From Mobula hypostoma (Eukaryota), in assembly GCF_963921235.1 (NCBI RefSeq), contig NC_086097.1, positions 135,968,001 through 136,032,000 on the forward strand: 64,000 nucleotides of DNA, in the 5' to 3' direction. Numbering within the stretch: position 1 is the first letter of the stretch; each line of letters opens with the position of its first letter. Below, piece by piece: positions 3,417-50,009 of this stretch. The notes beneath the pieces are model-generated. The model saw only the letters and a list, made by a program, of their open reading frames with translations. It made no database searches and was not told where the DNA came from. The position numbers and the translations under genes were made by a program.

Positions 3417-3555
3417 GGGGCACAGTGGAATAACAGATAGAGCCATGCCTCTCAGCCGCAGTGATCCAGGATCAATCCTGACCTCCAGTGTTGTCTGTGT
3501 GGAGTTTGCACACTTTCCGTGTGATCCTGAAGACGTTTCTTTCCACATCCATAGG
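3417..3555 (+). mobile_element. tRNA-derived V-domain SINE fragment
   Basis: A/B-box-like head (ggggcacagtgg...ccaggatcaatcctgacc) followed by V-domain-like tgtgtggagtttgcacactttccgtgtg. Confidence 0.65.
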
Positions 3556-3564
3556 TAGCGAATT

Positions 3565-4067
3565 GGAATCAGAATCCGATATATTATCTCTGACGTGTGT
3601 GATACAAAATTTGTTACACATAAAATCAATATGAGTTGCAAAAATAAATAAGTAGTGCAGAAAAAGGAATGATGAAGACGTGATTATGGGTTCATGCGTC
3701 ATTCGGGTTCAGAGGGTTCATCCTGGGTAGTGAGGGTGCTTAGTGATGGATGATGCCTTCCTGAACCACAGTCTCTTGAAGAGATTCTTGATGGTGGGGA
3801 GGGTCATGCTCGTTAAGTTTTCAGCCCTCTAAAGCTGCTTGTGATCCTGGTCATTGGAACCTCCATCCTGTTCAGAATGTTCCCTACCCTATGTCAATAG
3901 AAATTTGTAAGAGCACGTTAAAGGTTCTGCACAACATTGTGGGCTGAAGAGGCTGGACTGCTGTAATGTTCTATGTTCTTTGGTGACATACTGAATCTCC
4001 TCAAATTTCTAACAAAGTAAAGCCACTGGCATGCCTTCTTCATAATTATATTGTGTTTTTCCCAGGG
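3565..4067 (-). mobile_element. Rex1/Babar-like LINE, 3' part (host of the ERV)
   Basis: Minus strand reads WEKHNIIMKKACQWLYFVRNLRRFSMSPK, in frame with 11748-11890; microsatellite-like tail near 3565-3580. Confidence 0.7.
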
Positions 4068-5152
4068 TCTGAGTGTATTAAATTTGCTGACTGTAAAGTT
4101 CTAAACTCAGATGAAGATCTGAAGCCCTATCTGATACAGATAACGATAGGTACCATCACCAAAAGGGAGGCTATACTGTAGCTACCTACTCTTCAAAGAC
4201 TGGGTCACTCACCTGTTTATCTTTCATGGCAAGTTTAGCTGCCAATACCCACCATTTGAGTGGTGGGTCTCCGCTCTGTACCAGGGATGAGATACTTACA
4301 GCTAACAAAGTAGTTTAAACACAATTCATTTATTTTTAGTGATACACATATAAATCCAGACAAAATTCTTCAAACACATTTAAAACTCATTCAGGATATC
4401 TATCTTATAAAATATTTTAAAATTACAAATGATTTCTAAAACACAAAGTACTTACAAAACAATTCCTGGAAGTTAAAAAGACAGGCCAACAAGTTGCTGA
4501 CAAATGAATCATCCATTGCAGAAAATGAGGGCAGAGGAACGGTTTCTAATCATCCCATCTTTCTGGCATTCTTCTTATTGTTCCTTGACCATTCCTAGCA
4601 AGCATGGTTGCTCTCTAACATTTATACTGTTTTTTCTGCCACTTGAGTGACATCGCATGCACGTAATATTTTTTCCGATCTTTTTACACAAATGATCTAA
4701 AAGATTCTGGTGATAGAGTTTCAGGATACCCACAACTAATGCTGTGAAGCTGATTCCATGAGCACACAAACGTTGCAACTGTTAACAAATCAGCTATTTG
4801 ATGTGCTATCTGATAGTATCAATCTGGTCTGCAAACTTACCAGCATTTCCTGTTTGGAGCAGGCTTACCAACATAACTCCATTGTCAGACTAGCACCTGT
4901 GTTCTATAGACAGTGCTGTTTGTTCACAAAGCTATCCTTTTAACTTCAGACTGATTATTGCTTGGCATTTACATTAAGAACTGAAGACTGTCTCCTGTTT
5001 ACAACAAGAAGCTGAATAAAGAAAATTAGTTGGAAGTTTGACTTTCTCAAAAAATAATTATTTGAGCTCTCGAAGTTTCAACTATTAGGTTAGAAAGCTG
5101 AGCTTGGCAAAAAAGAAGGTCTCCTGGCCCTGGACTGTGAATATCCATCACA
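4068..5152 (-). repeat. 3' LTR of foamy-like ERV (~1.08 kb)
   Basis: 4568-5152 aligns by eye to 10993-11747; preceded on the minus strand by a G-run PPT; AATAAA at 4334-4329; ends at the TSD (terminus reads GA instead of CA). Confidence 0.8.
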
Positions 5153-5167
5153 GCCCCCCCCCCCCTT
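5153..5167 (-). promoter_or_regulatory. Polypurine tract of foamy-like ERV
   Basis: Minus strand AAGGGGGGGGGGGGC immediately 5' of the LTR start TGTGATGG. Confidence 0.8.
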
Positions 5168-7750
5168 GCTAAGTGAAGACTTTTAGACCAGCTTCTCTTT
5201 ACGGAAATCAGTTTCGAGAGCAGACTCCTGCCAAGACTCCTCTTGGGATCACTCCACCAACCATTCCAGTAGATTACCAGTTCAAGAAGAGCTTTCCTTG
5301 ATCCAATGCTGAAAGAACTCATTGAGTACTTCCTAATGTGTGATTTTCTACTTAGAGAATTCACTTTCTTCATATTAGCTGCATACATTTCTGAAACCTC
5401 TAAGGAGTGTTACCATTATAACTTTTCCATAACTGTGCAACAACAAAGCATCAATGTCCAGTTTATAAATCCATGTTATTTCATCTTTAAGATTTTCTTC
5501 CTCACCTACAGTTTTTGCTCTTTCCTTGCTACAAGTTTATCTTTGCCACAGTCAGTTCATCAGGTCATCAGCTGGTAATGCACTTTACTGAGCTGAAGAT
5601 AGCTCATTTCTTTCACAGGGTGTTGGCATTGCTTTCAATGAGGTGGGCAAATACTATTCAGGTTTTCTGAAAGCAAATCTAGTAAACAAGTTACTGATTG
5701 TATATTCTTGTCTTTTTTCCCCTAAGGATTAATAATTTAACATCTTAGTTATAAAAAAGTATATTTATCAGTTACAAGATTTCACAATATGTTAATATAC
5801 AAAGAAGGTGAAACATTTATAGATGTAACCTGCCTCTTTATGGTAGTGAAGTAAGCAAGTGTACGGTTCTCCTGTTGAGAATTCTGTCTGTACTTTTGAC
5901 TCTGGGTGGACAAAAAAAATGTCGGAACACAGGGGTTGGTTATGGTCCTCCTAAAGGAGTGAACACCCTCTTTAGCCTCAGCCAAGGTGAGGAAGATCCC
6001 AGCCAGTGTAAAGCCATGCAAAGCTGTGGGGCCGGACAACGTACCTGGTCAGGTGCTGAGGAACAGCGTGGCCCAGGAAACAAAGAACGTAATGCACATT
6101 TCTATCTCCTTGAATCAGTCCACTGTCCCTGCAGGCTTCAAGGCAGCCACCATCATTCTGGTCCCCAACAGAAGGACAGTAACGGACCTAAATGATTACA
6201 ACCCAGTGGCACTGACTTCAACAAATAATGAGCCACTTTGAGTGGCTGGTAATAGATCGTATAAAATCCCACCTTCCAGCTAGAGTAGACACTTTCCTGT
6301 TTGCCTACCACTCAAACCAATTCATTGATGATGCCATAGTCTTGACCCTCCACTCCATCCTCTCCCACCTAGAAAATGATACCTCATACATCAGAATGTT
6401 CTTCATCGACTTCAGCTTGGTGTTTAACATGGTTATCACTCAAATGTTAGTAGGTAATCTCTTCATTGGGACTCAACACTATTTACCCCATTTTTCAACA
6501 TGTATTCAAGGTCAATCTGAAATATAATTGGATTTGCAAGCACACCACTAGTTCAGAACTAATATTTGTTATAAGGTATTATTCACACCATGGTATGAAC
6601 TATTCGTAGCTGTTTGACTAAGGGCAAATAGGAAATCTGGGTGGATCCAATAGTCTATGGGGCTAAAATCTCTAAAAAGCTCAGTTTCAGTTGACCATGG
6701 AAAGAAACAATTTTGTTTTATCTCACCTTCTATTTCAGTACACCTTTCCATCTTATCTTCCCATGCAAAAATCAGATCCGTGGCATTGCCAAGACATTCG
6801 GAATATAGAGCTGTAATGCAGAAAATTGTCATGTTACCTTGATGCTTAACAATGGAGTGGAATAGTGGCCATAAATGGAGAAATGGAAACATCTAAAATC
6901 CTTCAGCTAGTTGTTGTCTATTAAAGGAAAGTCCATTAAGATATCCAAAAGAGTCTTCATTAAAAATGTTTTTCCACAATGCTTCAGTCTAATGGTTTCA
7001 ATATCATGTTCCCATGAGTGGGACCATTCAATGTCATCACAGTCTCTATACTTTCCTTCAGGTGTGGAGGGATCCATGTCAAGTAATTCCTCTGTTAGCT
7101 TTCCTTCTGTAACTAGGCTGGAATATTTCAGTTTTGTTGGCATTGTCATTAATCATTTTCGCAAGTGATCCTTTGCCTTCCCATGGTTCTACGTTCACCT
7201 TGTCTGCAATGCAATCACAGTCAACGTTCAAGCGGACAGGAACTTTGCCAGAAGCAAAGATTAAGTGTTCTGTGTATTAGTTCAGATGTGACCAATGGCT
7301 AAAGACCATCCGGTGATACTTAAATTAGATTCTTCATTGGTCGCAGATCTTTGTCCTCTAATATTCTCTTAGTCATTAAATTTAGAGGCGTACGCACCAG
7401 ATGAAAAAATTTCCATAGTAAATGCAACTTTGTCTGCTGAAAAGGGAATGTTAAGTAAGCCAGCACTGAATAATATTTTTATAAGCACAATTTGTAAAAG
7501 TAAAGTATAGCAAGAGCAGCATTTCTTCCTGGAGTTGGAGTCTTTCTTACTCTGAAAACAACAACACATTCTGGATGTATTACCCTTGGGCAATGTACCT
7601 ATGAGATCTTCCTCAACTGACAGGAGTTATTACATTTTTTAAGATCTAAACTTGTGTTTTATCTTTCCAATAGATCTCAATGCCTTCCCACCGGGGTGTA
7701 GGGGCTCCTTGTTGGACCCATGTATTAGTCTAATATAAGGATTCCATTCA
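5168..7750 (-). pseudogene. Post-pol region of foamy-like ERV: decayed env and/or accessory ORFs, product unassigned
   Basis: Lies between integrase and the PPT; minus-strand ORF remnants at 7369-7593, 6907-7149, 6569-6892 and 5047-5388; no clear furin site or TM anchor recognised. Confidence 0.5.
5965..6485 (+). mobile_element. Rex1/Babar-like RT fragment inserted in the ERV
   Basis: KAVGPDNVPGQVL, VPAGFKAATIILVP, LNDYNPVALTS, FAYHSNQFIDDAI and YIRMFFIDFSLVFN are Rex1-type RT motifs. Confidence 0.85.
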
Positions 7751-10700
7751 ATCTGGGGGATAAATTCTGCTGGGACAGGTTTCATATGATCTATGGAGAC
7801 AGTTTTACTTATAGTATTGTAAGGGTTTCTTCTTTTATGTTACTGCTAAGGTGAATAAAATAGCTTCTCTGTACTGTTAACTGCTGAGACAGTGGTTCAC
7901 TATAGCAGTAAGTTTGGATTATAATTAGTGATAACGGGACATGTATTCATTTGTTAACCAATTGGGATAGATGTTACTTTTTCTGTCTGTGTGAAAGCTG
8001 TTAGTTTGCGCAGGCTTTGTGGGAGAAGGTGCAAAGAGGATGAAGAGAGAAGACGTAGCTTGAGGAGACGGTTGCCGGACCCGCTGGGGCTGGGCTCAGG
8101 GCAGGAGCCTAGGGGTCGACGATGAGCGAAGGAGGATCAGTGAAAGGGAATCCGTGAGCTCCAACGTTTGTGCACTGGACATGTTTATGAGATTATTGGC
8201 ACCTTTTATCTGTTTTCCTTTTCTTCTGTTTCTCTACTAACCCCATACTTAAATATAAAATCTTAATCATTTAACCGCACATTGTGGACTGAATGTTATT
8301 TTGGGGTACTGATGTTACACAGGGGACACAACACGCAGCATCCACACTAACTTGATTACCCAGTTTGGCGGGGCTGAAGGCTGCTCCTCCTAGGCGGGAG
8401 CGAGCTGAGTGAGCCTGAGGCTTACCAGGGGGCTACAGTATTGTTTACCCTTCCTGTCTTGATTGCCATAGTCCTATCATTGATAACCTTGGTAAGAAGA
8501 CGAGGAGGTTTCCATTTAGGATGGAAACCAGGGTTGGAATTATTTTTATGGAATTTCTTTTCTTGGACCCAGTCCCCTTTTTGAAGAGTTCAAGCTTTCT
8601 TGTCAGGTTTTTTTATTTTTCTTGGATTCCCATAAACTCTCTCAATCCCTTGAGAAGAGTTGTACTGGTGTAGACGCTGGCTGGTCTGAGTTAGGGATCT
8701 GGAGTATAATTAGGTAGACATTGTACATTACAAAATAAGGTGTAACATTCTTATGTATTCCTATTTTCACAATTGGCATATTGTTTACAGACAGTTGCAC
8801 TTCAGGGGCAAGTATAGCCCACTTTTAGCCTCTAGAGTAGACCAATTTTGCCAGGCCCTGCTTAATCTCCTGATTCCTTCCCTCCACCATGCCACTTGAT
8901 AGTGGGTGGAATGGAGTGATGATCTCCACTTGTGCAATATGCCTATTTGTTCATACTAGGTCTGAAAGCCTTCACCAATGAAGGAAGACCTTGGTTGGCG
9001 TCTATGTAGACGGGGGTGCCAGCATGTGGGAATATGGAGTTTTGGAATGCCCTGATGATTGTGGCCTTACTACAAGAAGTTGTGGGGACTAACTACAAAT
9101 ATCAATGATCACAAGGATGTGTCTATTAGGTTTCCAATACGGTAGGTTGCCTTGGGATGCCAGAAAAGGGACTACAGTATTTACTCAATTTGCCACACCC
9201 ATATTCTGCAGTTAGTTTTGATTGTCTTATAGGAGGTGGTCTTGTGAGTGCTCCTTTAATATAGGCCAGACATTTTTGACAATTTGCAACAAATTGCTTA
9301 CAATCACCCTCAACATATAAGGCCAGCTTCCGCATGAGTGGCTTGTCTGCCATTGTGATTGAGTCTGAATCCTTGGTGGGTTTCTTGAATCAGTTCTTCC
9401 CACTTGAGGGAGGATGGATTTGCTTCTTCATCCTTGTAGGACAGCAAACCCAAACCTTATCTTCTCCATCAGCTGCATTGAAAATCCTCTGGGATTTAGA
9501 TCAGAAGTAGCAACATCTTGGTTATTTTTTATTTGTTGCTTAGTTACCACTAAAGCCCTAGTGACCCTTAAGGTCCATCCTGACTTGTTCGCTTGTTCAT
9601 TGGTTTGTTTATTACCATAGCTGTGTAAGTTGCCTGCAGCATGTCCCAAGATGTGTAACAGCTGTACTAATGGTCAAGTCAATAATAATTCATAAATATT
9701 CTTCCATGTAGACAAATGTGGAAGCAGTTTACCTCTGTGTGTTCTCCATCTGGTAGTGGACCAGATGGGAAAATCTCTTTCTACTGCATTCCTAACTTAA
9801 CGAGGGTCAGTATTTATCAAGACTGGTTCTGTTGTATTTAACTGTTTTAAATATAACTCTGCAAATTAAGCTGTATGATTCCCTAAAGGATGAGCTTGCA
9901 ACTAATGTAGTTCAAATTCAGTTTCCGATGTAATTTTTCCTTTTATAATCCCTGCTCCTGCCTGTGATTGAGTGGATCCATCTTTCTGGATTTTCATTAC
10001 TAAGCCATCACAGTACTATATTTGAGAATGGTGCTCTAAAGGATATCATGCTACATTGGGTTGTGCGGATGATGGCTCTGCATCTTCCATGACAGGAAAG
10101 GATTGTAAGTTATAGCTCTCAGGAATGTATCCTCACCTTACAGTGTAGCATTATAAAAGTGTTTGCCATTTCACGTATCCAGTTATTGTAACTCTCTGTT
10201 TATTTTTGGCAATTTGTTATCACTCTTCATAGCTGCAAACTCTGTATAATGATTGGTTTGTCCAGTTGCAGTGGTCTTTTACAATAAGTGTATGGAATAC
10301 CATAATAAGACATCATTCTGAGACAGTAAATTTTTGTTCTGTTGGGGTGAGATTGTATGAGGTATAGTGTATAGGGCCTTTCTCCCTCATTATAGCAGAT
10401 GGCTACAACAGTTTTTTGGAGAAACATGAATTTGTAGAACAAGAGACTTTATTAGATCTTTTGTCTGGAGGTCTATTCCTTGATAGACTGCATTGACCAA
10501 TTTCTCTAGTGCCTCAAAAATTTCAGGGGTAAAACAAAAGGTTTTTCATTATTTGATGTACATCGATTGTATAATGATTTTGACATTTGAGTATAGCCAG
10601 GTATGAAAGCTCTAGCATAATTCTACAGTCCGAGGGTTGAATGTAAGACTTATAGGGTCTTTTGCTATCCTTCTTGAGCGACCTTTTATCTAAACCATAG

Positions 10701-10980
10701 ATAAACCATTGCATGGAATAATGGACATTTCTCTGTATCCTACAGGAAGAGAGAAAGGGTTAAACCATGTCCCTGATTGGTAATTGCCAACCTTTTAATG
10801 ACAGTCAAAATCTATGTTAAATGTTAGTGCAGTATACATCATCAACATATGCCCAAATATCTGGTGTTCCCTGTAGATTCAGAATGACTACTGTGGACTG
10901 TTCCAGCTGCAGACTTGTGGGAGATTGGCCCATAAGTCTGATATTGTAAGCCATCAGGTGCTGTAAAGGCTGTGTAGCAT
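7640..10980 (-). pseudogene. pol: Foamy-like pol (RT-RNase H-integrase), 5'-truncated, many stops and frameshifts
   Basis: Hand translation gives YTAFTAPDGLQYQ/WANLPQ, WAYVDDVY (YVDD 10849-10838), LGL*NYARAFIPGY, CYNEGERP, YCDG, AGAGII, PLGNHTA*FAEL (9889-9854), PVLINTD, CQKC, HILVIID, TPFHPLSSGMVE, GDWVQEK, PKWKPP and KTVSIDHMKP, colinear with prototype foamy virus Pol. Confidence 0.9.
7818..8437. mobile_element. Solo LTR (620 bp) of an unrelated LTR element, inserted in the ERV integrase C-terminus
   Basis: TGTAAGGG...GGCTACA termini; GTAT TSD at 7814-7817 and 8438-8441; integrase motifs resume on both sides. Confidence 0.85.
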
Positions 10981-10989
10981 CTGTCACTT

Positions 10990-11747
10990 GCTGTCATTCT
11001 TCTTGATGTTCTTTGACCATTCCTAACATGCTTGACTGCTCTCTAAAATTTATACTGTTTTTCTATCACTTGGGCGACTTCACATGCATGTGATAATTTT
11101 TCAGAAACTTTACACAAATCATCTAAAAGCATCAAGGGACAGAGTTCCTAAATCCCAGAATTAATGCAGTGAAGCTGACTCTCTGAGCACATAAACCTTC
11201 CAACTATTAATAGATCAACTATATTGATGTGCTAAGTTATAGTATCAATCTGGCCTGGAAGCTTCCTTAAACTAAGGGTCTGAGTGCAGGTTGGTGGGAC
11301 TAGGTGAGAGTAAGAGTTCGGCACGGACTAGAAGGGCCGAGATGGCCTGTTTCTGTGCTGTAATTGTTATATGGTTATATGGTTATAAATAATTTAGCCA
11401 TCGTTGTCTGGTTTGAAACAAGTCAATTAACATAATCCCTTTGTTTTGCACTACATCTCTTGGGCAGTCAGCCCGGTTGTTCTTGGCATCAGTCTGTGTT
11501 CTATAGACAGTTCTGTCTGTTTACAAAGCTCTCCTTTTAACTTCAGACTGATTATTGATTGCCACTTACATTAAGAACTGAAGACTGTCTCCTGGTTACG
11601 ACAAGAAGCTGAGCAAACAATATTAGTTGGAAGTTTATTTTAATCAAAAACAATTCTTTGATCTCCAGAAGTTTCAGATCCTATGTTACAAAGCTGAGTT
11701 TGGGAAAAGAAAGGCCTCCTGGCCCTGGATAATGAATATCCATCACA
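10990..11747 (-). repeat. 5' LTR of foamy-like ERV (U3 part only; R/U5, PBS, gag and protease deleted)
   Basis: Homologous to 4568-5152; joins directly to mid-RT sequence at ~10980; contains a CR1 tail insertion. Confidence 0.8.
11270..11390 (+). mobile_element. Young CR1 3' tip inserted in the 5' LTR
   Basis: ctaggtgagagtaagagttcggcacggactagaagggccgagatggcctgtttctgtgctgtaattgttatatggttatatggtt is nearly the reverse complement of 33345-33450 and is absent from the 3' LTR. Confidence 0.85.
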
Positions 11748-11890
11748 AGGGTTGATCCTCTGATACCCTGATAACCAGGAACTTGAAGTTGCTCACCCTT
11801 TCCACTGCTGATGCTTGATGAGGACTGATGTGTTTTCTCTCAACTTCCTCTTCCTGAAGTCCACAATCAATTCCTTGGTATTGCAGAGAC
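11748..11890 (-). mobile_element. Rex1/Babar-like LINE, upstream part (host of the ERV)
   Basis: Minus strand reads NTKELIVDFRKRK...AVERVSNFKFL...EDQP and continues at 4067. Confidence 0.8.
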
Positions 11891-12204
11891 TATTGGACAT
11901 TTTCCTGTACCCTAGAGGAAGAGAGAAAGAGTAGGCTACAGGAAAAAGCATAGACCTGATGGCTGGATTGCCTCCTTCTATGACGTATGAAATTTAAAAT
12001 TAACTACTGTTGATGTGTGGGCCAAAATTTGAATCTTGTTTCATTAACTGGGCCAGTATTTCAAATTACATCCACATGTACTTACTGGCATTTCTTCTAA
12101 AAGCAGCAGAAATGCAGTATTAGTTGCTAGTCTTGTGACTGAAAGGATCCCATAAGCCACACATCCTTTGAAGTCTGAAGGATTAATGTGCTTCATACCT
12201 CATT

Positions 12205-12490
12205 ATAAGGAAGAAGGCCACTCTGCCCATGAGTCTATGTTAGCTCTCAGAGTAATCCCATCAATCTCAATCCCCAGTTATTTCTCTTTCAGCAAATAAC
12301 ACCCACTGTGGGAAATTTACAGCCGCCAATTAACCTATCGAATGAGGACGTTGGAAGAAACCTGGTGCACCTGGTGGAAACCCATGCAATCACAGGGAGA
12401 ACGTGTATATTCCCTGGAGGTCGGGATTGAACCTGGGTCTGTGCTGGTGCTGTGAGCTAGTGGCTCTACTAGTTGCAATGTAGCCCCACC
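12205..12490 (-). mobile_element. V-domain SINE, decayed
   Basis: ggaaacccatgcaatcacagggagaacgtg and gggattgaacctgggtc are the reverse complements of the V domain and B box. Confidence 0.6.
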
Positions 12491-12597
12491 CCAATGTCTT
12501 TGTGCTCATAGATTCGGATGAAACTAGCAGGCTATTGTTTTAGTTATCCATGAAGTGTTGGATAAATGACAGAAATTCCACCTAGCTGCTGTATGTG

Positions 12598-23764: not shown

Positions 23765-24029
23765 TCCCCCTTCTCAAGATTTTTTTTACAACACTGTGAA
23801 TTACCAAAACAATGCCTCTAGGTATGCCCTTCTTACAGTGCAACAACTCTGACATAAACTAAAAAAAATCTTACCCCGTACTGTATTCTGCATTGTATCT
23901 TACAATACTAACAGCAGTGTATTTTCTTTTACTAACATAGACTAATAAACCTTTTATTTCACACCTTGGAAGTTATGACATGTGTGACTTTGCCTCAAAC
24001 TGTGTGAGACTGTATGTATGTCTGGTCTC

Positions 24030-27000
24030 TGTATCTAACTGGAAGTTTGACCTGTCTCCCAGACCGTGTGTGATACAACTGTGACTGTGCTTGTCCTTCA
24101 TCCCTGTCAGTCTCTCCAGTGACCTCTGTGTCTTTGCCGTCTGCATCACTCTTGGTGTCGTCTGTTTCCATGTCTGTATCTGTGGAAATGTCCAGTGCAT
24201 CTGTACGTGGAAACTCATTCTGGCCTGTCTTCAGCAGATGCTTCCTGTTCCTCCTGTAGACTCTTCCATCCGGTGTGCGAACTATGAAGGATCTTGGTTG
24301 CTGATGTCTGTTCACAACCACAGCTGGTTGCCAAGTGTCCCCTCTCTGTATTCTGACATTTTCACCTGTATGCAGATCTGGCAACTGTCTTGTATGTCTG
24401 TCATAGTAGCTCTTTTGCTTTATTTGCTTGTACTTTTGCTTGTCATGTAGTTGAGCATTACCTCCAGGAGTCAGTAGAGTTGTGGATGTTGGCAGTTTGG
24501 ACTTCAGACGACGTCCCATCAGGAGAGAACCCCACACCCTCAATCGGTGTGTTGCGATATTCAAGCAGAGGAATGCAAGGGTCACCGTTGCTGCTTTGTG
24601 CCTTCTTGAGCATGTTCTTGACAGTTTGTACAGTTCTCTCTGCTTGTCCATTAGACTGAGCGTGCCCTGGACTGGAAGTAGCATGTTGAAATTCCCAGCT
24701 TTCTGAGAACCCTCTGAACTCACCACTGGCATATTGTGGACCATTGTCACTAACGACGATATCAGGAATCCCATGTCTTGTGAATGATGACTTCATTGCG
24801 GTAATGACACCTCGACTGGACGTGTCACTTAACTTGGTGATCTCCGGATATTTCGAATAGTAGTCCACACAAAGCAGATATTCTGCACCATTGTAGTGAA
24901 AGAGATCTGTGCTAATCTTCTCCCATGGTCTTCCTGGTAGTGGGGAAGTAGAGGCTCTCTTGGATTGCTGTTTTTGTTTTCATTACAGACAGCACACTGA
25001 GACACAATGTCTTCTATCTGAGTTGACATGCCTGGCCAATAGAGAATGTCTCTTGCTCTTTCTTTACATTTCACTATCCCCAGGTGTGACTCATGAATTC
25101 TGTTGAGCATTTCCTGTCTCATTTGGTTTGGTACGATGAGTTTTGCCGTTTTGAACATTAGTCCTGATGCATAGCTGATTTCCTCTTTAAATGTCCAGTG
25201 TTTCTGCATTTCCTTTGGAACATCTTTTCTTTCTGTTGGCCATCCATTCATTGTAATGTCTCTTAGCATTTGCATTTCAGGACCATCTGCAGTCGCTTTC
25301 CTGAACATGTTCAACTTCTCCTCAGAGATGGGTAGCTGAGGTGTAACCCAGTTGACCTCCAGCTCTCTTTCTAGCAACTCTTCCTTTTGCTCTTTGAGGT
25401 GAGCAGGGCTCAAAGCATCAGTGATGTACATTTCTTTTCCTGGCTTATAGGTGACTGTGAGAGTGTACGTCTGTAGCCTGAGAAGCATCCTTTGCAGCCT
25501 CATAGGAGCTTGGTGGAGTGGCTTTTTGAAGATGCTGTCAAGTGGTTTGTGATCACTCTCAACCTGGATTTCTTTGCCATATACATATTGCTGGAATTTC
25601 TCACACCCTCAAACTATGGCGAGTAATTCCTTCTCGATTTGAGCATACCTGCGTTGACAGTCCATAAGTGCTCGTAATACGCCACAGGCCTCCCATCCTG
25701 CAGTATAACAGCTCCTATTCCTTTCGAACTGGCATCCACAGACATCGTCACTGGTTTATCGACATCATAGAACTTGAGTGCTGGTGCATTGGTGACCAAC
25801 TGCTTCAATGTGTCAAAACTTTTCTTTTGTTCGTCTTCCCAGTGCCATTCAGTGTTGCTCTCTAGTAGCTTTCGGAGTGGAGCGCTGTCCTCTGATAAGT
25901 TGGGAATGAATTTGGCAAGATACTGTATCATGCCCATGAACCTCAATAGTTCTTGCTTGTCTTTGGGTGGTGGTAGCTGTACCACAGCTCTGACCTTTTC
26001 ATCATCTGATTTTAGCCCATCAGCACAGAGCACATGCCCTATGTATTTGATCTCTGCAGTTCTGATCTTATATTTACTTTTGTTCAGTTTTAGGTTGTAC
26101 TCACGTGCTCTCTCCAGGAGCTTCCTCAGTCTCTGATCAAGTTCCTCAATTGTTTCACCCCATATCAGCAAATCATCAATGATGTTGACCACCTCATCCA
26201 GGTCTTCAATCATTTGTGCCACGGATCTCTGGAATACCTCTGATGCAGAAGAAATCCCAAAGGGCAGACGCAGGAAACGATATCTCCCTATGGGCGTGTT
26301 GAAAGTGCATAATTTGGACTTTCGTCATCCAGTTTGATCTGCCTGAAACCTTGATTTGTGTCTAATACTGAAAAGTATTTTGCATTAGGCATGCGGGAGA
26401 CAACCTCTTCAACCGTGAGCAGCGGATAGTGCTCTCTTTTGATGGCTTGGTTGAGATCTTGTGGATCCATGCAAATCCTCGTCTTTTTTTCTGTGACCAC
26501 TGTCACCATACTATTCACCCAGTCGGTCGGTTCTATTTGTCTTGTTATGACTCCCATCTGTTCCATTCTGTGTAGCTCCACCACTACTCGATCCCTGAGA
26601 GCTACTGGAATCTTTCTCGGGGCATGCACGACTGGGGCAATAGTTGGATCAATCTGGATATGGTGTTTCCCTGGTAAACATCCTAATCCAGAAAACAAGT
26701 CATCAAAGTCTTTGAGAATGACATTTTCTTTTTCAATACCATAGATTCGCTTCACCAGGCCTAGCTTTGTGCATGTTGCTTTGCCCAGTATTGCTGAAAC
26801 ATGTTGCTGTACTATTTCAAACTCGATCTTGTATTGTTGACCCCTGTACACACAGGTGAGTGCTTTTTTGCCCAGTGGCGCCGTCTTGTGGCTGAAATAT
26901 GCAACAAGCTTGCAGGTGGATTTTTCCAGTCTTCCTCTGATGTCCAGTGGGTTGAATGTTTCTGTCGCCCCAGTGTCAAGCTTAAATGTCATATTCCTCC

Positions 27001-27060
27001 TGTTTATTATCAGATCTTGAGTACAATCATCTTCATCCTTCATCTCTGAATTGTCAATAT
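24030..27060 (-). pseudogene. pol: Gypsy pol (protease, RT, RNase H, integrase), frameshifted
   Basis: FKLDTGA; RICMDPQDLNQAIKREHYP; VVNIIDDLLIWG; VDASSKGIGAVILQ; HESHLG...CAVC; DYYSKY, SDNGPQY, NGQAERTVQTVK; YRRNRKHL. Confidence 0.93.
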
Positions 27061-28302
27061 TCTTGATGCATACCCCCTGTTCCGCTTCAACTGTGCCAAT
27101 GAACATGTCACTGTTGCCCTCACTCTGTTCCACAGCATGCATTTCCCTTGCGTGCTCCTTCGATTTGCACATCCTTGCAAAGTGATTTCTTTTCTGGCAT
27201 AACTTGCATGTCTGACCAAAGGCTGGACATTTTCTGTATCCATGTTTATAACCACATCCGTTGCAGTTAACTTCCTTTTGATCATCCTGTGGAGCTGGAT
27301 TTGTCCTACTCTTGTTAGTTTTCACAGTTTTTATTTTGTGCACTTCAATCTCTTCATTGAGCACATCGGGCTGACCGCGGTGCACTGAGAGCGGTAAGTG
27401 TAAAGGAGTTGGGTGCTTACTGTTCTGGTTAACAACAGATGCTGCAATCTGGGTCATATTACGATTGAGGAACGTGTTTGTAGACCAGATATTGAACTTT
27501 CGGCCATATTCCACCGAGATACAACACTGGGCGGCAAGGGAGGTCGTTCCTGCCTGTGGCCATCGAACTTTGCAGCTCCTCCCGTGGGGGGTCAGACACC
27601 CTGAGCCAATAGGCTGGTCCTGGACTTATTTTCCATCTGGAATAGTTTGCATTTTGTTGTTTGATTGTTTGTGGTTTTTGTATTGCTATATTATGCTCTA
27701 TTCTTGGTTGGTGGGGCTGTAACGAAACCCAATTTCCCTCTGGATCAATAAAGTACATCTATCTAGCTATCTATCTATCTAACCTGACTTGACGTGATCT
27801 CGCTGGCACGACAAACATCAATTGCCTTTTCTAATGTAAGATCCTCCTCTCTCAGTAGCCTGCGTCTCACTTGATCATCCCATATGCCGCATACAATCCT
27901 GTCATGTATTAAAGAGTCATGCAGTTGTCCGAACTCACAGTCTTTTGCCTTGCTCTTCAAATCTGTTACATAGGCATCTATGGTCTCTATTGGTCCTTGA
28001 GCCCTCGTGAAAAACCGGTGTCGGATGAACGGTAGTTTTTTTCTCGGTTCGCAGTAATCTTGAAACTTTTTTTTCAACACTTCAATTTTATCTTGCTCAT
28101 CATCTTGGAAGACAAACGTGTTGCAAACCTTTATTGCCTCTTCCCCCGCCACATGCAGAAACGTAGCACATTGCACTTTCTCCGTCTTTTCAGCTACGCC
28201 TTTAGCGGTGCAAAACAGCTCAAACTTCTGGATCCATATTTTCCAGTTCTCAGCAAGATTACCTTGTAGGCTTAAACTTGATGGTGGCTGTAACTGTAAC
28301 AT
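27061..28302 (-). pseudogene. gag: Gypsy gag (capsid-like plus zinc knuckles), interrupted by a Rex1-like insert
   Basis: ORF 27775-28302 (LQGNLAENWKIWIQKFELF...DRIVCGI) resumes after ~27365 as LNEEIEVHKI...CNGCGYKHGYRKCPAFGQTCKLCQKRNHFARMC. Confidence 0.88.
27365..27779 (+). mobile_element. Internally deleted Rex1/Babar-like LINE inserted in gag
   Basis: Endonuclease-like RADR...VLVNNRCCNLGHITIEERVCRPDIEL joined directly to C-terminal RSFLPVAIEL, a 3' UTR and a (CTAT)n tail. Confidence 0.7.
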
Positions 28303-28342
28303 CCTTTACGTGTCTTCTCTTCCTTTTTATTTTTCGCGTTTT

Positions 28343-28354: not shown

Positions 28355-28496
28355 TGTAATATTGATGTGACTCGGACACCGCTGTAGATTGAACAACCAC
28401 GTAACCACGTTTATTCACCAGACTTCCATTTTTACTTCTCCACGTCCTGCTGTCATATGCACTCTGACTTTACGAATACTCACACAATACATTACA
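28355..28496 (-). repeat. Gypsy 5' LTR (142 bp)
   Basis: TGTAAT/ATTACA inverted termini; matches the left LTR; AATAAA on the minus strand at ~28415-28410. Confidence 0.92.
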
Positions 28497-28527
28497 CACA
28501 GTGTTTCTGTCTTGGTGGGCCCAGTTC

Positions 28528-31500
28528 CATAAGACCATAAGACATAGGAGCAGAATTAGGCCATTTTGCCCATTGAGTCTGCTTCGCCATTGAATCATGG
28601 CTGATCCTTTTTTTCTCTTCTCTGCCCCACTCCCCAGCCTTCTCCCTGTAACCTTTGATGCCATATCAATCTCCGCCTTAAATACACCCAATAACCTGGC
28701 CTCCATGGTTGCCTGTGGTAACAAATTCCACAAATTCACCACCCTCTGGCTAAAGAAATTTCTCTGCATTTCTGTTTTAAATGGATGCCCCTCTATCCTG
28801 AAGCTGTGCCCTCTTGTCCTAGACTCCTTCAACATGGAAAACATCCTTTCCACATCTACTCTTCTAGGCCTTTCAACATTCAAGAGGTTTCAATAAGATC
28901 CCTCCTCAACCTCCTAAATTCCAGCAAGTACAGACCCAAAGCCATCAGAAGTTCCTCATATAATAACCTTTTCATTCCCAGAATCATCCTTGCAAACTTT
29001 CTCTCCAATGCCAGCACATTTTTTCTTAGATAAGGAACCCAAAACTGTTCACAATACTCAAGGTGAGGCCTCACCAGTGCCTTATAAAGCCTCAGTATCA
29101 CATCCCTGCTCTTGTATTCTGAACTTATTAAAATGAATGCTAACATTGCATTTGCCTTCCTCACCACTGACTTTACCAGCAAGTTAACCTTTAGGGTGTT
29201 CTGCGCAAGGACTCCCAAGACCCTTTGCATCTCCAATCTTTGAATTTTCACCCTGATTAGAAAATGGACTGTCAAAGTGCATGACCATGAATTTTCCAAT
29301 ATTGTATTTCATTTGCCACTTTCTTGCCCATTCTCCTAATCTGTCTAAGTCCTCCTGCAGCCTTCCTGTTTTGTCAACACTACCTGCCTCTTCACCAATC
29401 TTCATATCATCTGCAAACTTGGCAACAAAGCCATCTGTTTCTTATCTAAACCATTGGTATACAGCATAAAAACTAGCGGTCCCAACACCAGCCCCTGTGG
29501 AACACCTCTAGTCACTGGCTGCCAACCAGAAAAGGATTCTTTTATTTTCATCTCCTGCCTCCTACCAATCAGTCAATGCTCTAACCATGCCAGTAACTTT
29601 CCCGTAATACTATGGGCTCTTAACTTGGTAAGCAGCCTCATGTGTGACACCTTGTCTCAGGCCTTTTGAAAGTCCAAATATACAACATCCACTGCAACCC
29701 CTTCATCTATCCCACTAGTAATCTCCTTAAAGAATTCCAATGGGTTTGTCAGGCATGATTTTCCCTTAAGGAAACCTTGCTGACTTTGTACTATCTTGTC
29801 CTATATCACCAAGTACTCCATAACCTCATCCTTAACAATTGACTCCAACATCTTCCAGGATATCTGGTCTATAATTTCCTTTCTGCTGCCTCCCTCTTTT
29901 CAGAACCCTGGAGTGCAGTTTATCTGGTCTAGGTGATTTAGACATCTTTGGGTTTCTCATCTTTTGAGCACTTTCTCCCTTGCAATAGTAACTACACTCA
30001 CTTCTTTTCCCTCACACCCTTCGAAACCTGGCACACTGCTAGTGTCTTCCACAGTGAAGACGGATGCAAAATATTTATTTAATTCATCTGCCATTTCTTT
30101 GACCCCTGTTATTATTTCTGCAGCCTCATTTTACACCGGTCCTACATCCACTCTCATCTCTCTTTATTTTTTACATACATGAAAAAGCTTTTTCTATCCA
30201 TCTTGATATTGTTTGCTAGCTTGCTTTTATATTTCATCTTTTCCCTCCTAATGATACTTTCAGTTGCTTTCTGTAGGTTTTTAAAAGCTTCCCAATCCTT
30301 TATCTTCCCATTAATTTTTGCTTTGTTGTATGCCCTCTTTTTTGCTTTTACATTGACTTCCCTTGTCAGCCACAGTTGTACTATTTTGCCATTTGAATAT
30401 TTCTGATGTTTTTGGAATATATCTATCCCACATCTTCCTCATTTTTTCCCAGAAATTCATGCTTTGCTGCTCTTCTGTCGTCCTTGCCAGCATCTCCTTC
30501 CGATTTACTTTGGCAAACTCCTCTCTCATACCACTGTAATCTCCTTTACTCCACTAAAATATTGCTATGTTAGGCTTTACTTTCTCCCTATCAAATTTCA
30601 AGTTGAACACAATCATTTTGTGATCACTGGTTGCTAAGGGTTTTTTTTTACCTTAAGCTCCCTAATCACCTCCGATTCATTACATAACACCCAATCCAGT
30701 ATAGCATATCTCCTAGAAGGCTCAACAACAAGGTGCTATAAAAAGCCATCTCAAAGGCATTCAACAAACTCACTCTCTTGAGATCCATTTCCAACCTGAT
30801 TTTTGCAATTGACCTGCGCGTTGAAATCTCCCATGACTATCATAACATTGTCCTTTTGATATGTCTTTTCTATTTCCTGTTGTAATCTGCAGTTCACATC
30901 CTAGCTACTGTTTGGAGGCCTGTATATAACTGCTGCCAATGTCCTTTCGCTCTTGCAGTTTCTTAACTCAACCCACATGGATTCAACATCTTCCCATCAT
31001 CTGTCACATCTTTCTAATGATTTGATGCCATTCTTTACCAGCAGAGCCACGCTACCCCCTCTGCCTACCTTCCTGTCCCTCTGATACAATTTGTAACTTT
31101 GGTCATTCAGCTCCCAACTACAACCATCCTTCCGCATGATTTAGTGATGGCCACAATATCATACCCAACAATCTGTAAAAGTGCAACAAGATCATCCACC
31201 TTATTTCTTATACTCCATGCATCTTTGAGTACTGTACTTGCTGCCCTTTTTGATTCTGCATCCCTAATGCACTAATACTCATCCCGCTGGCTGCAATTTT
31301 GTCCTATCATCTGCCTGCCCTTCCTAACAGTCTGACTGCACGCTATCTTTGCTTTTTTACCATCCATCCTATCCCGAGTCCCTTCGCTCAGTTCCCATCC
31401 CCCTGCCAAATTAATTTAAATGCTCCCCAATCGTTCTATCAAATCTGCCTGTGAGAATATTGGCCCTCCTTGGGTTCAGATGCAACCCATCGCTTTTGTA

Positions 31501-31990
31501 CAGGTCATACCTCTCCCAGAAGAGATCCCAGTTTTCCAGGAATCTGAAGCCCTGCCTGCTACACCAGCTTCTCTGACATGCATTTATCTGCCAAATCATC
31601 CTGTTTCTACCCTCACTGGCATGTGGCATAGGTAGTAATCCAGAAGTTACTATCCTGGAGTTCCTGCTTCTCAGCTTTTTGCTACCTCTGTAAATTCTCT
31701 CTTCAGGACCTCTTTGCCTTTCCTTCCCATTCCTTGTCCTGACATTCACCCAGCTACTCGCCTCCTGCAACTTAGGGGTGACTACTTCCTTGTAACTCCG
31801 ATCAATGATCTTCTCACTCTCTCGAACAAGCTGAAGTTCATCCAGCTGCTGGTCCAGATCCCTAGCACAGTCTTCAAGGAGCTGCAGCTGGATGCATTTC
31901 ACGCAGATGTAGTTCCCCAGTGTGTACCGTGGCTGACATGACTCAGTAAAATCATTAATCCTGCTACTCTATTTTCCTTCTTTCTCAGCA
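28528..31990 (-). mobile_element. Near full-length decayed CR1 LINE (ORF1 esterase, EN, RT, tail)
   Basis: Tail (cataagac)n; RLYKALVRPHLEYCEQFW; VAKFADD; ORF1 remnant at 31411-31940. Confidence 0.9.
31411..31940 (-). pseudogene. CR1 ORF1 remnant (Cys-rich N-terminus plus SGNH-like esterase), internally deleted
   Basis: CVKCIQLQLLED...RIVTSGLLP...WCSRQGFRFLENWDLFWERYDLYKSDGLHLNPR (DxxH motif). Confidence 0.8.
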
Positions 31991-32014
31991 CTTACGTAAC
32001 AGAATCCATACTGA

Positions 32015-32520
32015 TTTCAGCCTGTTGAGGGGAATGGCCACACAGGTACCCTGCACTGACTGCCTATCCCTTTTCCCTCTCCTGATGGTCACCCAATTAC
32101 TTGTGCCCTACACCTTAAGTGTAACTCCCTCCTTCTACCTCCTGTCATCAACCCCTCAGCCTGCAGAATGATCCAGAGTTCAGAATAAGGATCCAGAATA
32201 AGAAGCAGCAGCAGGGTGCATTTCTAGCTAATGTAGTTGTCAGCTACACTGTAGGTCTCCCTGTCTTCCCACATCCTGCAAGTTGAGCATTCCATTGTCC
32301 TGAATGTCATTCCCACTACTCTAATTGCACCAAGAAAGAAAGAAAGAAAGAAATCAAGCAAAATCTCAACTAAGCCTGCTCTCACCTCTGCCTCTTGAGC
32401 CAAATCCTTAAGCTTTCTACTCTTAGCACTGACAGCTCTCACAATGGCCACTCCCACAATGGCTGCTCTGCTTAAACCTAACTTCTTTTTATTGACTCTT
32501 GCCACGTGCCTAATTACCTT
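32015..32520 (-). mobile_element. Second CR1 5' end (5' UTR and ORF1 N-terminus)
   Basis: MECSTCRMWEDRETYSVADNYI, a second ORF1 start upstream of the one at ~31940. Confidence 0.6.
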
Positions 32521-33344
32521 ACAATCTCAAGCCCTCCAAATATCCTTACTGGCGAGTTTCCAAAACTCACGCTCACAATCCACAAACCAATGGGTCTCAC
32601 CATCTCCAAAGTGTTTCAACAAAAGACAATATATGTTACATCTTCCCTTCATTGAAAAATTGCTATCTTCGCATTATAAATGAAGCTGGTCCAGAATGTC
32701 TGAGTTCCTTGCAGATTTGCAAACTGGATAGCCGTAGTGTGGCATAAAAAACACAGAAAGTACTGCAAACCCTCAGAAGATCAGGCAGCATCTGTGGAAA
32801 GACAAATACGAACGGTTCAGGTCTAGGATCCTTTGACAGAACATTTTTCACAGATACACTTCTGATTTTTATTTACAATTTCTAGCATCTGGAGTTATTC
32901 TTGATGTTCAGATAGCATGATGGCTTGGATATGCTAGTGAGGATTGAAGATTCTTTGCTAAAATACCATTGGAGTGTCCAAATCTTCCACACCATTTCCC
33001 ATCTCCCTATCAGCATTATGGGAGCTAAATCCATTGGGATCATTAAATCACCATCAAAATTTATGAAAGAAGTTAGAGAATGCTTAGAATTCTTAACACA
33101 TAGAGTTCATTCTCAAGCTGTAGACCTGAATGTTTCATGTTTGTCTTTCCACAGATGCTGCCTAATCTTCTGAGTGTTTTGTTGATGTTGGGAGGCTTGT
33201 ATCCATGAAGGGGCTGGCTTCATATCTACAACCTTCTGCAGCCTCATGTGATCTGTGCAGTGGAGCCTCTGTCCAAGGCTGTCATGCATCCAGTCAGATT
33301 GCATGGTGCATCTATAGAAACTTGTACAAGTTAGTGAAATGACC

Positions 33345-35045
33345 TATAACCATATAACAATTACAGCACGGAAACAGGCCGTCTCGGCCCTTCTACTCCG
33401 TGCCGAACGCTTACTCTCACCTAGTTCGACCGACTTGCACTCAGCCCATAACCCTCCATTCTTTTCCTGTCCATATACCTTTCCAATTTTTCTTTAAATG
33501 ACAATATCAAACCTGCCTCTACCACTTCTACTGGAAGCTCGTTCCACACAGCCACCACTCTCTGAGTAAGGAAGCTCCCCTAGTGTTACCCCTAAACTTT
33601 TGCCCCCTAACTCTCAACTCATGTCCTCTTATTTGTATCTCCCGTACTCTCAATGGAAAAAGCCGATCCACATCAACTCTATCTATCCCCCTCATAATTT
33701 TAAACACCTCTATCAAGTCCCTCAACCTTCTACGCACCAAAGAATAAAGACCTAATTTGTTCAACCTTTCTCTGTAACTCAGGTGCTGAAACCCAGGTAA
33801 CATTCTAGTAAATCTTCTCTGTACTCTCTCTATTTCGTTGACATCTTTCCAAAACTGTACACAATACTCCAAATTTGGCCTCACCAATGCCTTGTACAAA
33901 TTTAACATTACATCCCAACTCCTATACTCAATGCTCTGATTTATAAAGGCCAGCATACCAAAAGCATTCTTCACCACCCTTTCCACATGGGATTCCACCT
34001 TCAGGGAACTATGCGCCATTATTCCTAGATCACTCTGTTCTACTGCATTCTTCAACGCCCTACCATTTACCATGTATGTCCTATTTTGATTAGTCCTACC
34101 AAAATGTAGCACCTCACACTTATCAGCATTAAACTCCATCTGCCATCTTTCAACCCACTCTTCTAATTGGCTTAAATCTCTCTGCAAGCTTTGAAAACCT
34201 ACTTCATTATCCACAACACCACCTATCTTAGTATCATCTGCATACTTACTAATCCAATTTACCACCCCATCATCCAGATCATTAATGTATATGACGAACA
34301 ACATTGGACCCAGTACAGATCCCTGAGGCACACCACTAGTCACCAGCCTCCAATCTGACAAACAGTTATCCATCGCTACTCTTTGGCATCTCCCACCCAG
34401 CCACTGTTGAATCCATTTTACTACTTCAATATTAATACCTAACAATTGAACCTTCCTAACTAACCTTCCGTGTGGAACCTTTTCAAAAGCCTTACTGAAG
34501 TTCATATAGACAACATCCACTGCTTCACCCTTGTCAACTTTCCTAGTAACGTCTTTGAAACATTCAATAAGATTTGTCAGACATGACCTTCCATGCACAA
34601 ATCCATGTTGACTGTTCCTAATCAGACCCTGTCTATCCAGATAATTATATATACCATCTCTAAGAATACTTTCCATTAATTTACCCACCACTGACGTCAA
34701 ACTTACAGGCCGATAATTGCTAGGTTTACTTTTAGAACACTTTTTAAATAATGGAACAACATGAGCAATATGTCAATCCTTGGGCACCATCCCCATTTCT
34801 AATGACATTTGAAATATTTCTGTCAGAGCCCCTGCTATTTCCACACTAACTTCCCTCAAGGTCCTAGGGAATATCCTGTCAGGACCTGGAGACTTATCCA
34901 CTTTTATATTCCTTAAAAGCGCCAATACTTCCTCTTCTTTAATCATCATAGTTTCCATAACTTCCCTTACCTTACACAATTCAATATCCTTCTCCTTAGT
35001 GAATACCGAAGAAAATAAATTGTTCAAAATCTCCCCCATCTCTTA
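33345..35045 (-). mobile_element. Young 5'-truncated CR1 LINE
   Basis: Long RT ORF remnant; 3' hairpin and TATGGT-type tail at 33345-33360. Confidence 0.95.
33528..35039 (-). pseudogene. CR1 ORF2 reverse transcriptase (truncated; 390-aa open segment)
   Basis: KSPGPDRIFPRTL, QHGFVHGRSCLTNL, GVPQGSVLGP, KYADDTK, LVRPNLEYCVQFW. Confidence 0.93.
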
Positions 35046-49600: not shown

Positions 49601-50009
49601 GTACATTCTGCCTGATGATAGCTACGATAAGGTGATGGTAGGGATCTTTAATTATGGATGCTGCTTTCCTGAGGTAGCTCCTCCTGTAAATATGACCAGG
49701 ATATATTGTATAAATGTGCCCATGATCTATAGCAGGGGTCCCCAACCATTTTTACACCGCGGACCGGTTTAATATTGACAATATTCTTGCGGACCGGCCG
49801 ACGGGGGACGGGAAGGGTGTTCAAGTAGGGTCTCACTCCCAAATAAGGGACAAAAGTAGCAGTCAAATACGGCAACACACATCAAAGTTGCTGGTGAACG
49901 CAGCAGGCCAGGCAGCATCTCTAGGAAGAGATACAGGTGACGTTTCGGGCCGAGACCCTTTGTCAGGACTAACTGAAGGAAGAGCTGGTAAGAGATATCT
50001 CTTACTATC

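Follow-up and report, generated by a model that had tools for sequence, protein, structure and literature searches.

A decayed foamy-type provirus in the genome of Mobula hypostoma and the in-frame gag-pol junction of its family

A provirus without reading frames

The stretch analysed here, 64,000 nucleotides of the Mobula hypostoma genome (NCBI RefSeq assembly GCF_963921235.1, contig NC_086097.1, positions 135,968,001 to 136,032,000 of the forward strand; hereafter the window), carries on its minus strand, between positions 4068 and 11747, a decayed provirus whose family very probably belongs to the foamy-virus clade and whose sister copies have gag and pol sharing a reading frame that a stop codon interrupts. 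No open reading frame (ORF) longer than 159 codons is left within 3500-12500. Nevertheless, the original prediction, made from the letters alone, had put together an ordered Pol by hopping between frames, and every motif it named can be found on the minus strand, in the stated order and spread over three frames (Table 1). It had also described the element as bounded by long terminal repeats (LTRs), a polypurine tract (PPT) and a 4-bp target-site duplication. We confirmed both ends, the CCCT duplication, the G-rich PPT and a full 3' LTR, whereas the 5' LTR proved to be truncated. Since positions 1-594 of the 5' LTR join the reverse transcriptase (RT) directly, the window copy is missing the remainder of this LTR, the primer-binding site (PBS), gag, protease and the N-terminal half of RT. 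The two flanks look like one element of the long interspersed (LINE) type split by the provirus, and an ALKBH8_N-type LINE tail match lies at 3918-4100.

Contigs of four other organisms (B, C, D and F) lie on the locus and diverge from it by approximately 1-3% in B, 4-7% in C, 6-9% in D and 6-10% in F. The junction of the 5' LTR with the flank is spanned by contigs of single-copy depth in D and F, as is the joint left by the LTR-RT deletion; for the env-LINE joint such contigs come from B, D and F. Because these joints are bridged in other species, the insertion and its big deletions are older than the corresponding host splits. The locus is a fixed, non-coding, dead fossil of an enveloped foamy-clade retrovirus.

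Table 1. Features of the provirus and of the insertions within it (positions in the window; motif positions are given in the direction of the minus strand).
Feature	Position	Strand	Remarks
Target-site duplication CCCT, 5' side	11748..11751	-	4-bp length also family-wide
5' LTR, cut off after LTR position 594	10988..11747	-	Abuts RT at 10988; joint bridged in organisms D and F too
Very high-copy short repeat (short interspersed element or LINE tail)	11277..11385	-	Inserted later in the 5' LTR; depth >100,000 in that bin
RT C-terminal remnant	10593..10988	-	YVDD 10849-10838; NYARAFIPGY 10622-10593
Foreign stretch of ~63 nt within the RT remnant	10695-10757		Repeat D5
Connection (tether) domain remnant	10051..10592	-	CYNEGERP 10397-10374
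Foamy-type RNase H	9570..10050	-	YCDG 10015-10004; PLGNHTA 9889-9869; Pfam RNase_H E 5e-4
Integrase, zinc-binding to C-terminal domain	8438..9480	-	Frameshifted; TPFHPLSSGMVE 8917-8882; GDWVQEK 8577-8557; PKWKPP 8520-8503
Nested 620-bp solo LTR, unrelated younger family	7818..8437		TG..CA ends, ATAC duplication; 39 other scored loci at 90-93% identity
Integrase C-terminal end	7760..7817	-	KTVSIDHMKP 7806-7777; colinear with sister copies when the solo LTR is skipped
env N-terminal half (leader and surface/receptor-binding part)	6480..7770	-	Broken; matched by the foamy Env profile
LINE fragment in place of ~1.85 kb of provirus (rest of env)	5968..6479	+	Joints also spanned by contigs of other species
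3' internal region, candidate accessory gene(s)	5169..5967	-	Common to sister copies; TATAAA at 5821 and 5467
PPT	5153..5168	-	
3' LTR, 1,085 bp	4068..5152	-	TATAAA at 4626, AATAAA at 4334
Target-site duplication CCCT, 3' side	4064..4067	-	

Relationships of the family

The original prediction had pointed to the rest of the genome for more complete copies, and a high-copy family with gag-bearing members was found there, the best scored copies being mostly 70-76% identical to the window element. In the 3.48-Gb assembly, the pol query found 432 candidates, the env query 339, the query with the 3' internal region 240 and the LTR query 5,078; 40 candidates were scored per query, and these numbers are not copy counts. 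The family is spread in hundreds of internal copies and probably in thousands of LTRs. Out of 25 LTR loci examined, 13 had both ends, one of them the window's own 3' LTR, for which no match is expected; among these 13 the 4-bp duplication was perfect at 4 and had at most one mismatch at 8, and no perfect duplication of 3, 5 or 6 bp occurred. The LTRs of the examined loci are 1,085-1,282 bp long, the PBSs of the sister copies are of the tRNA-Lys1,2 type, like the foamy PBS allowing for decay, and the PPT-LTR border, GGGTG in foamy viruses, is G-rich in five copies, its exact motif blurred by decay. A group of LTR copies (L162-L181) about 80% identical to one gag-complete provirus exceeds the window LTR in length (1,150-1,280 bp), which suggests LTR subfamilies. 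The Kimura two-parameter distance between paired LTRs, 0.19-0.21 in the window copy and 0.155-0.28 in four other copies, would put the age of the window copy at approximately 45 Myr with a rate of 2.2e-9 or 450 Myr with 2.2e-10, so that the age hinges on the rate; the lower rate is the one assumed in PMC4422223 (papers are cited by PMC number throughout).

The window's RNase H and integrase and the RT of a sister copy all have foamy structures first in the PDB, by wide margins. The RNase H frame matched 2lsn with E 1.7e-16, the next match being only a bacterial RNase HI (E 0.046), and the integrase frame matched prototype foamy virus integrase with E 1.6e-10; the motifs are thus not due to chance. 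In a HMMER search with the RNase H frame, feline foamy virus Pol was the best match among 1.84 billion representatives; a word-based homolog search with this frame gave no match, and a Pfam scan of the window frames returned RNase_H only. Foamy Pol proteins reached 108-159 summed bits in tblastn against the window pol. Relatives of the foamy-like endogenous retroviruses (FLERVs) of fish were looked for among viral contigs and none were found.

In phylogenetic trees with one row per copy, the family was monophyletic at 100% in the RT, RNase H and concatenated analyses and joined the mammalian foamy viruses and tetrapod foamy-like elements, apart from epsilon and gamma retroviruses and Gypsy, which is the outcome that the original prediction had expected of an RT and integrase (IN) tree. 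Support for the foamy grouping was 88 for RT, 88-89 for RNase H and IN, 93/97 for the concatenated RT, RNase H and IN, and 90/92 when RT was analysed by itself with a mixture model, a bootstrap of 90-93% for the last two analyses. The family's clade also includes the salamander-type row P0015, while the ray-finned-fish rows branch outside it. The tetrapod foamy clade took in, besides, an intact 1,156-aa Pol (P0045) and two uncharacterised proteins of the frogs Spea bombifrons and Pelodytes ibericus (P0004 and P0005). Mean identity to the mammalian foamy rows exceeds that to the fish rows both in RT (0.35-0.39 vs 0.28-0.30) and in IN (0.31-0.34 vs 0.18-0.21). The tree references were without CoeEFV, CmiFLERV, a lokiretrovirus and ERV-L, feline foamy virus served as the seed of the alignment profiles, which may lean towards foamy viruses, and the FLERV label of P0013 and P0099-P0103 derives from motifs and trees. 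Rows below the set fill thresholds were omitted from the trees, and row R_C2, which the IN tree placed with Gypsy probably through contamination by a nested insert, was omitted from the concatenated, approximately unbiased (AU) and mixture-model analyses.

Foamy homology was also detected in Gag and Env. The foamy Gag central (capsid) domain (Gag_FV_central, PF20672) scored above the cut-off at three sister loci, the window copy being without it because of its deletion, and a sister Gag had 5m1h as its top, though weak, PDB match (E 0.19). At the end of Gag, none of 15 sister copies has a CCHC box and 8 of the 15 carry a VN|V-type (p3-like) motif within 30 codons of the stop; the lack of a Cys-His box and a p3 cleavage site near the Gag end are foamy traits (PMC5210030). 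For the N-terminal, Env-binding domain of Gag, hhalign scored the Gag-N piece of one copy no better than shuffles. A profile built from 12 foamy Env proteins matched the N-terminal half of env in many copies at corresponding positions (best E 5.5e-8), the window giving 5.0 bits against -2.5 bits for the best reversed control, and foamy Env gp130 was the sole PDB match of a sister env piece (E 0.008). A basic cleavage-like site was found in env of 5 of the 8 copies searched. Foamy profiles detected neither the transmembrane (TM) half of Env nor Tas nor Bel2, and a genome-wide search for foamy Env (PF03408), of reduced sensitivity, was empty. Between env and the PPT lie approximately 0.8-1 kb with TATA boxes, a region for which Tas and Bel2 profiles and an Atlas search of the 3' ORF revealed no homology. 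An open frame of 120 codons (5047-5409, minus strand) leads out of the 3' internal region, across the PPT and into U3, like the accessory ORFs of foamy viruses; the Atlas search found no homolog of it.

Not all results favour this placement equally. A protease profile test came out almost even, 16 of the 30 pieces being nearer to foamy viruses and 14 to gamma and epsilon retroviruses, and the RT-only AU test does not reject a grouping with the fish FLERV-like rows (p 0.157). The latter result would suit a more distant fish foamy-like lineage (a ray-finned or elephant-shark FLERV) or a lokiretrovirus, outside the tetrapod-type foamy clade, and so would a support of 88-93, which lies under the starred level in trees lacking CmiFLERV, CoeEFV and loki elements, and the clustering of the catshark ERV-Spuma with ray-finned FLERVs (PMC10699275). 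However, RT and IN are more identical to the mammalian than to the fish rows, the AU test on the concatenation rejects the fish FLERV-like grouping (p 0.019), and Gag and Env have a detectable foamy homology which the teleost elements lack according to the available text of PMC5210030. Moreover, a Pfam search for the paramyxovirus fusion domain (PF00523), an Env type that marks loki elements (PMC7947760), found no match in the broken frames of three sister env regions. We therefore regard an origin in such a lineage as very improbable, although ray-finned-fish foamy-like elements are only partly excluded as relatives. A Gypsy, epsilon or ERV-L element that resembles foamy viruses in short motifs only is hardly credible. 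It would agree with the in-frame TAG described below, a trait of epsilon and gamma retroviruses, and ERV-L was outside the sampling, but epsilon (p 1e-6) and Gypsy (p 0.005) are both rejected by the concatenated AU tests, the tblastn comparison showed no signal for five Gypsy-like proteins and the Gag and Env matches are foamy-specific; this explanation is largely refuted.

The gag-pol junction and an in-frame deletion form

The junction was studied in sister copies, 26 of which were examined and 15 of which reach the end of gag. In these copies gag and pol occupy one frame split by a stop, and pol has no start codon. The junction codon is TAG in 7 of the 15, CAG in 3, TAT in 2 and TAA, TGG and GTG in one each. 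The frame ahead of it is rich in Arg, Pro and Gly, without a Cys-His box, and runs on to the protease, whose catalytic Asp lies 26 codons beyond the junction codon, while the other two frames contain stops common to the copies just upstream. Only one of 12 covering copies has an ATG between the stop and the Asp. The distance from the Gag-N frame to the junction codon has a modal value of 1,476 nt, a multiple of three, for three of four probes. In control foamy genomes, by contrast, pol overlaps gag in the +1 frame (12/12) and an ATG stands early in the ORF (11/12), whereas genomes of the gamma, epsilon and snakehead type show the in-frame TAG-G (6/6) with the Asp 27-40 codons on. The latter controls are the IMG/VR contigs L062, L073, L081, L088, L090 and L093, which we presume, from genome length and motifs, to be the viruses so named. 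In one exogenous foamy genome (L129) the pol frame lacks an ATG ahead of the protease Asp, owing either to a non-AUG start or to a sequence error. The Pol of P0045 starts with Met 17 residues ahead of its Asp, and NviFLERV-2, AciFLERV and AliFLERV are annotated with a pol that has its own ATG in another frame, the pol start of NviFLERV-1 being marked as uncertain (PMC5512871).

A separate pol ORF with its own start, a foamy trait, is absent from this family on the level of DNA layout, and for this reason we do not file the family as a canonical spumaretrovirus. The original prediction of a spumaretrovirus-like lineage is borne out by the structure matches, the foamy-specific Gag domain of the sister copies and the trees, but not in this feature. 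The layout suggests, with somewhat better than even probability, that Pol was made by read-through of the stop. Several observations weigh against this reading. The fourth probe, heavily deleted, gave 1,475 nt, and a cruder majority-column count over 7 copies, superseded by the modal measure, gave a length not divisible by three. There was no signal of RNA structure downstream of the stop (mean z -0.26, 13 copies). CAG at the junction (3/15) exceeds its background of 5.5% (p 0.045), an excess compatible with a splice acceptor of the YAG type or with an open frame. In addition, five fish FLERV-like proteins are annotated, by protein annotation only, as single long products of 2,168-2,206 aa, and the fusion layout may for this reason be older than inferred. 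Finally, the mechanism rests on the sister copies, since the window copy is without the junction.

Two other explanations of the junction have to be weighed. The YAG/G at the Gag stop could be a splice acceptor, and Pol could have been expressed independently in the foamy manner, with its start at an AUG of an upstream exon or at a codon other than AUG. TAG or CAG occurs in 10 of the 15 copies, the excess of CAG fits such a site, a branch-point-like CTAAT is seen by eye approximately 26 nt upstream in several copies, ATA stands at the position equivalent to the foamy Pol start in 8 of 15, the foamy genome L129 likewise has no ATG before its catalytic Asp, and spliced pol is the foamy norm (PMC3705302). 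On the other hand, ATG was found at that position in none of the 15 copies, the pyrimidine tract of the putative acceptor is weak, the sequence after the stop is preceded by gag in all 12 copies at hand and joined to an upstream exon in none, and the common deletion joint approximately 66 nt beyond has no GT-AG ends; we consider splicing unlikely. Less probable still is an infectious ancestor with a single open Gag-Pol frame, in which the stop would be a lesion of a defective master copy spread in trans. The sense codons found in 6 or 7 of the 15 copies (CAG 3, TAT 2, TGG and GTG), the clear multiplication of deleted forms within the family and the long annotated products of the fish FLERV-like proteins would agree with it. 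Yet the CAG copies are no closer to one another (identity 0.781) than to the rest (0.785-0.786) and hence form no sub-lineage, the sense codons are unlike each other and mostly one step from TAG, and the TAG-G context and spacing agree with the gamma and epsilon viruses. Furthermore, a retrovirus producing Gag-Pol alone would lose the usual excess of Gag.

A second peculiarity of the family is a deletion shared by many copies. Of 11 copies mapped in full, 5 jump from the first ~330 nt past the PBS to the active-site motif of the protease. The search for this joint gave 26 spanning matches among 40 scored, and the joint is present in 25 of 30 fetched loci, 23 of them with identical spacing across it, so that the joint search favours the deleted over the complete form. 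A motif of 4-5 nt is present at both ends, and Gag-N (approximately 100 codons) stays in frame with a protease that loses about 20 N-terminal residues, any function of the fused Pol being putative. The joint is no splice product, as it has no GT-AG ends and the microhomology is short. In the tree, the deleted copies are star-like and a starred group unites 4 of the 5 gag-complete loci. One deletion at many sites points to replication with Gag supplied in trans.

Taken together, a virus primed by tRNA-Lys1,2 integrated with a 4-bp duplication and multiplied in the host genome, and the window copy lost gag, protease and half of env ahead of several host-species splits. We propose that the virus expressed Pol as Gag-Pol by reading through the in-frame gag stop. 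A deletion derivative, with the first ~100 Gag codons fused in frame to the protease probably via template switching at the short shared motif, could then have been amplified with Gag supplied in trans. As relatives from salamanders, ray-finned fish and mammals carry pol separately, with an AUG of its own, the fusion layout is most simply a derived return to fusion expression; parsimony makes it a derived state inside the foamy clade, provided that the long fish products are not true fusions. Tentatively, and with rather less confidence than in the read-through itself, the spliced, Gag-independent Pol might have been lost in this lineage, or have arisen more than once, and be separable from the other replication traits of foamy viruses, the layout having let the in-frame Gag-N/Pol deletion form parasitise the family.

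With the exogenous foamy viruses (prototype/simian, feline, bovine and equine) the family shares the RT, RNase H, integrase, Gag central and Env surface domains, the Lys1,2 PBS, the long LTR, the 4-bp duplication, the p3-like Gag motif and the lack of a Cys-His box; it differs from them in the position of pol, in frame behind the gag stop and without its own AUG instead of in the +1 overlap, in the lack of detected Tas, Bel2 or Env TM homology and in its high copy number. With the gamma, epsilon and snakehead-type retroviruses the family shares a single gag-TAG-G-pol frame in which the catalytic Asp follows at a similar distance; these viruses are distant in Pol phylogeny and differ in Env, in LTR size and in Gag, which carries a Cys-His box in the gamma rows. 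Foamy-like endogenous retroviruses (ERVs) are known from elephant shark (PMC5512871), catshark (PMC10699275), teleosts (PMC5210030) and coelacanth (PMC3386198). The foamy-like Pol, long LTRs and 4-bp duplications recall NviFLERV and AciFLERV/AliFLERV, unlike the pol of NviFLERV-2, AciFLERV and AliFLERV with its own ATG in another frame (PMC5512871). The endogenous foamy viruses (EFVs) of coelacanth and tuatara, described as the only two high-copy EFVs, resemble the family as high-copy ERVs of the foamy clade, but a shared in-frame Gag-protease deletion form is not described for them in the available parts of PMC3386198 and PMC6669660.

Independent, spliced expression of Pol is the textbook divide between foamy viruses and all other retroviruses (PMC3705302). 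A natural orthoretrovirus-like junction in the foamy clade would bear on when it arose and, if true, would match in fossil form the Gag-Pol fusion mutants that have been engineered in prototype foamy virus and are cited in PMC3705302. How independent Pol originated becomes testable by comparing a single short junction among elements of sharks, rays, coelacanths and amphibians, and a high-copy foamy ERV with insertions common to several host species is useful for dating. A literature search, covering the available text of papers including PMC7947760, PMC6955096, PMC3386198 and PMC5210030 but not a 2023 study on cartilaginous fish, found no read-through junction in endogenous foamy viruses.

The basic find, which the original prediction had called possibly undescribed, is probably not new. 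The 2023 study, by Wang, Chen and Cui (J Virol 97:e0181622), reportedly, going by its title, places an endogenous foamy virus from cartilaginous fish at the root of the vertebrate foamy viruses, a position akin to that of the present family in our trees; judged by the title alone, that virus is likely the same lineage or a sister to it. If absent from that study, the junction with its in-frame stop and the multiplied in-frame deletion form would be new, whereas the family would be an ordinary additional member if the junction is already described there or is a splice site.

Other elements in the window

The solo LTR nested in the integrase belongs to a family with 5,544 candidates, much younger than the provirus at 90-93% identity. 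Some of its pairs lie 3-6 kb apart, which suggests short internal regions, and organism F shows far less depth for it than do B, C and D. Elsewhere in the window, a separate Gypsy element, fairly intact but frameshifted, occupies 23995-28305 on the minus strand, with gag, protease, RT, RNase H and integrase recognised by Pfam. Fragments of CR1/L2-type LINE ORF2 lie at 28470-34772 (minus strand; RVT_1 E 4e-31 for 33528-34772) and at 40819-41331 (plus strand). A retroelement at 49992-52328 (plus strand), with an RT (weak RVT_1 match) and a probable GIY-YIG end, is one that we take to be Penelope-like. Finally, a satellite array of approximately 258 copies of a 29-bp unit (91% match) extends over 55277-62746, with 38-bp and GT-rich repeats ahead of it.

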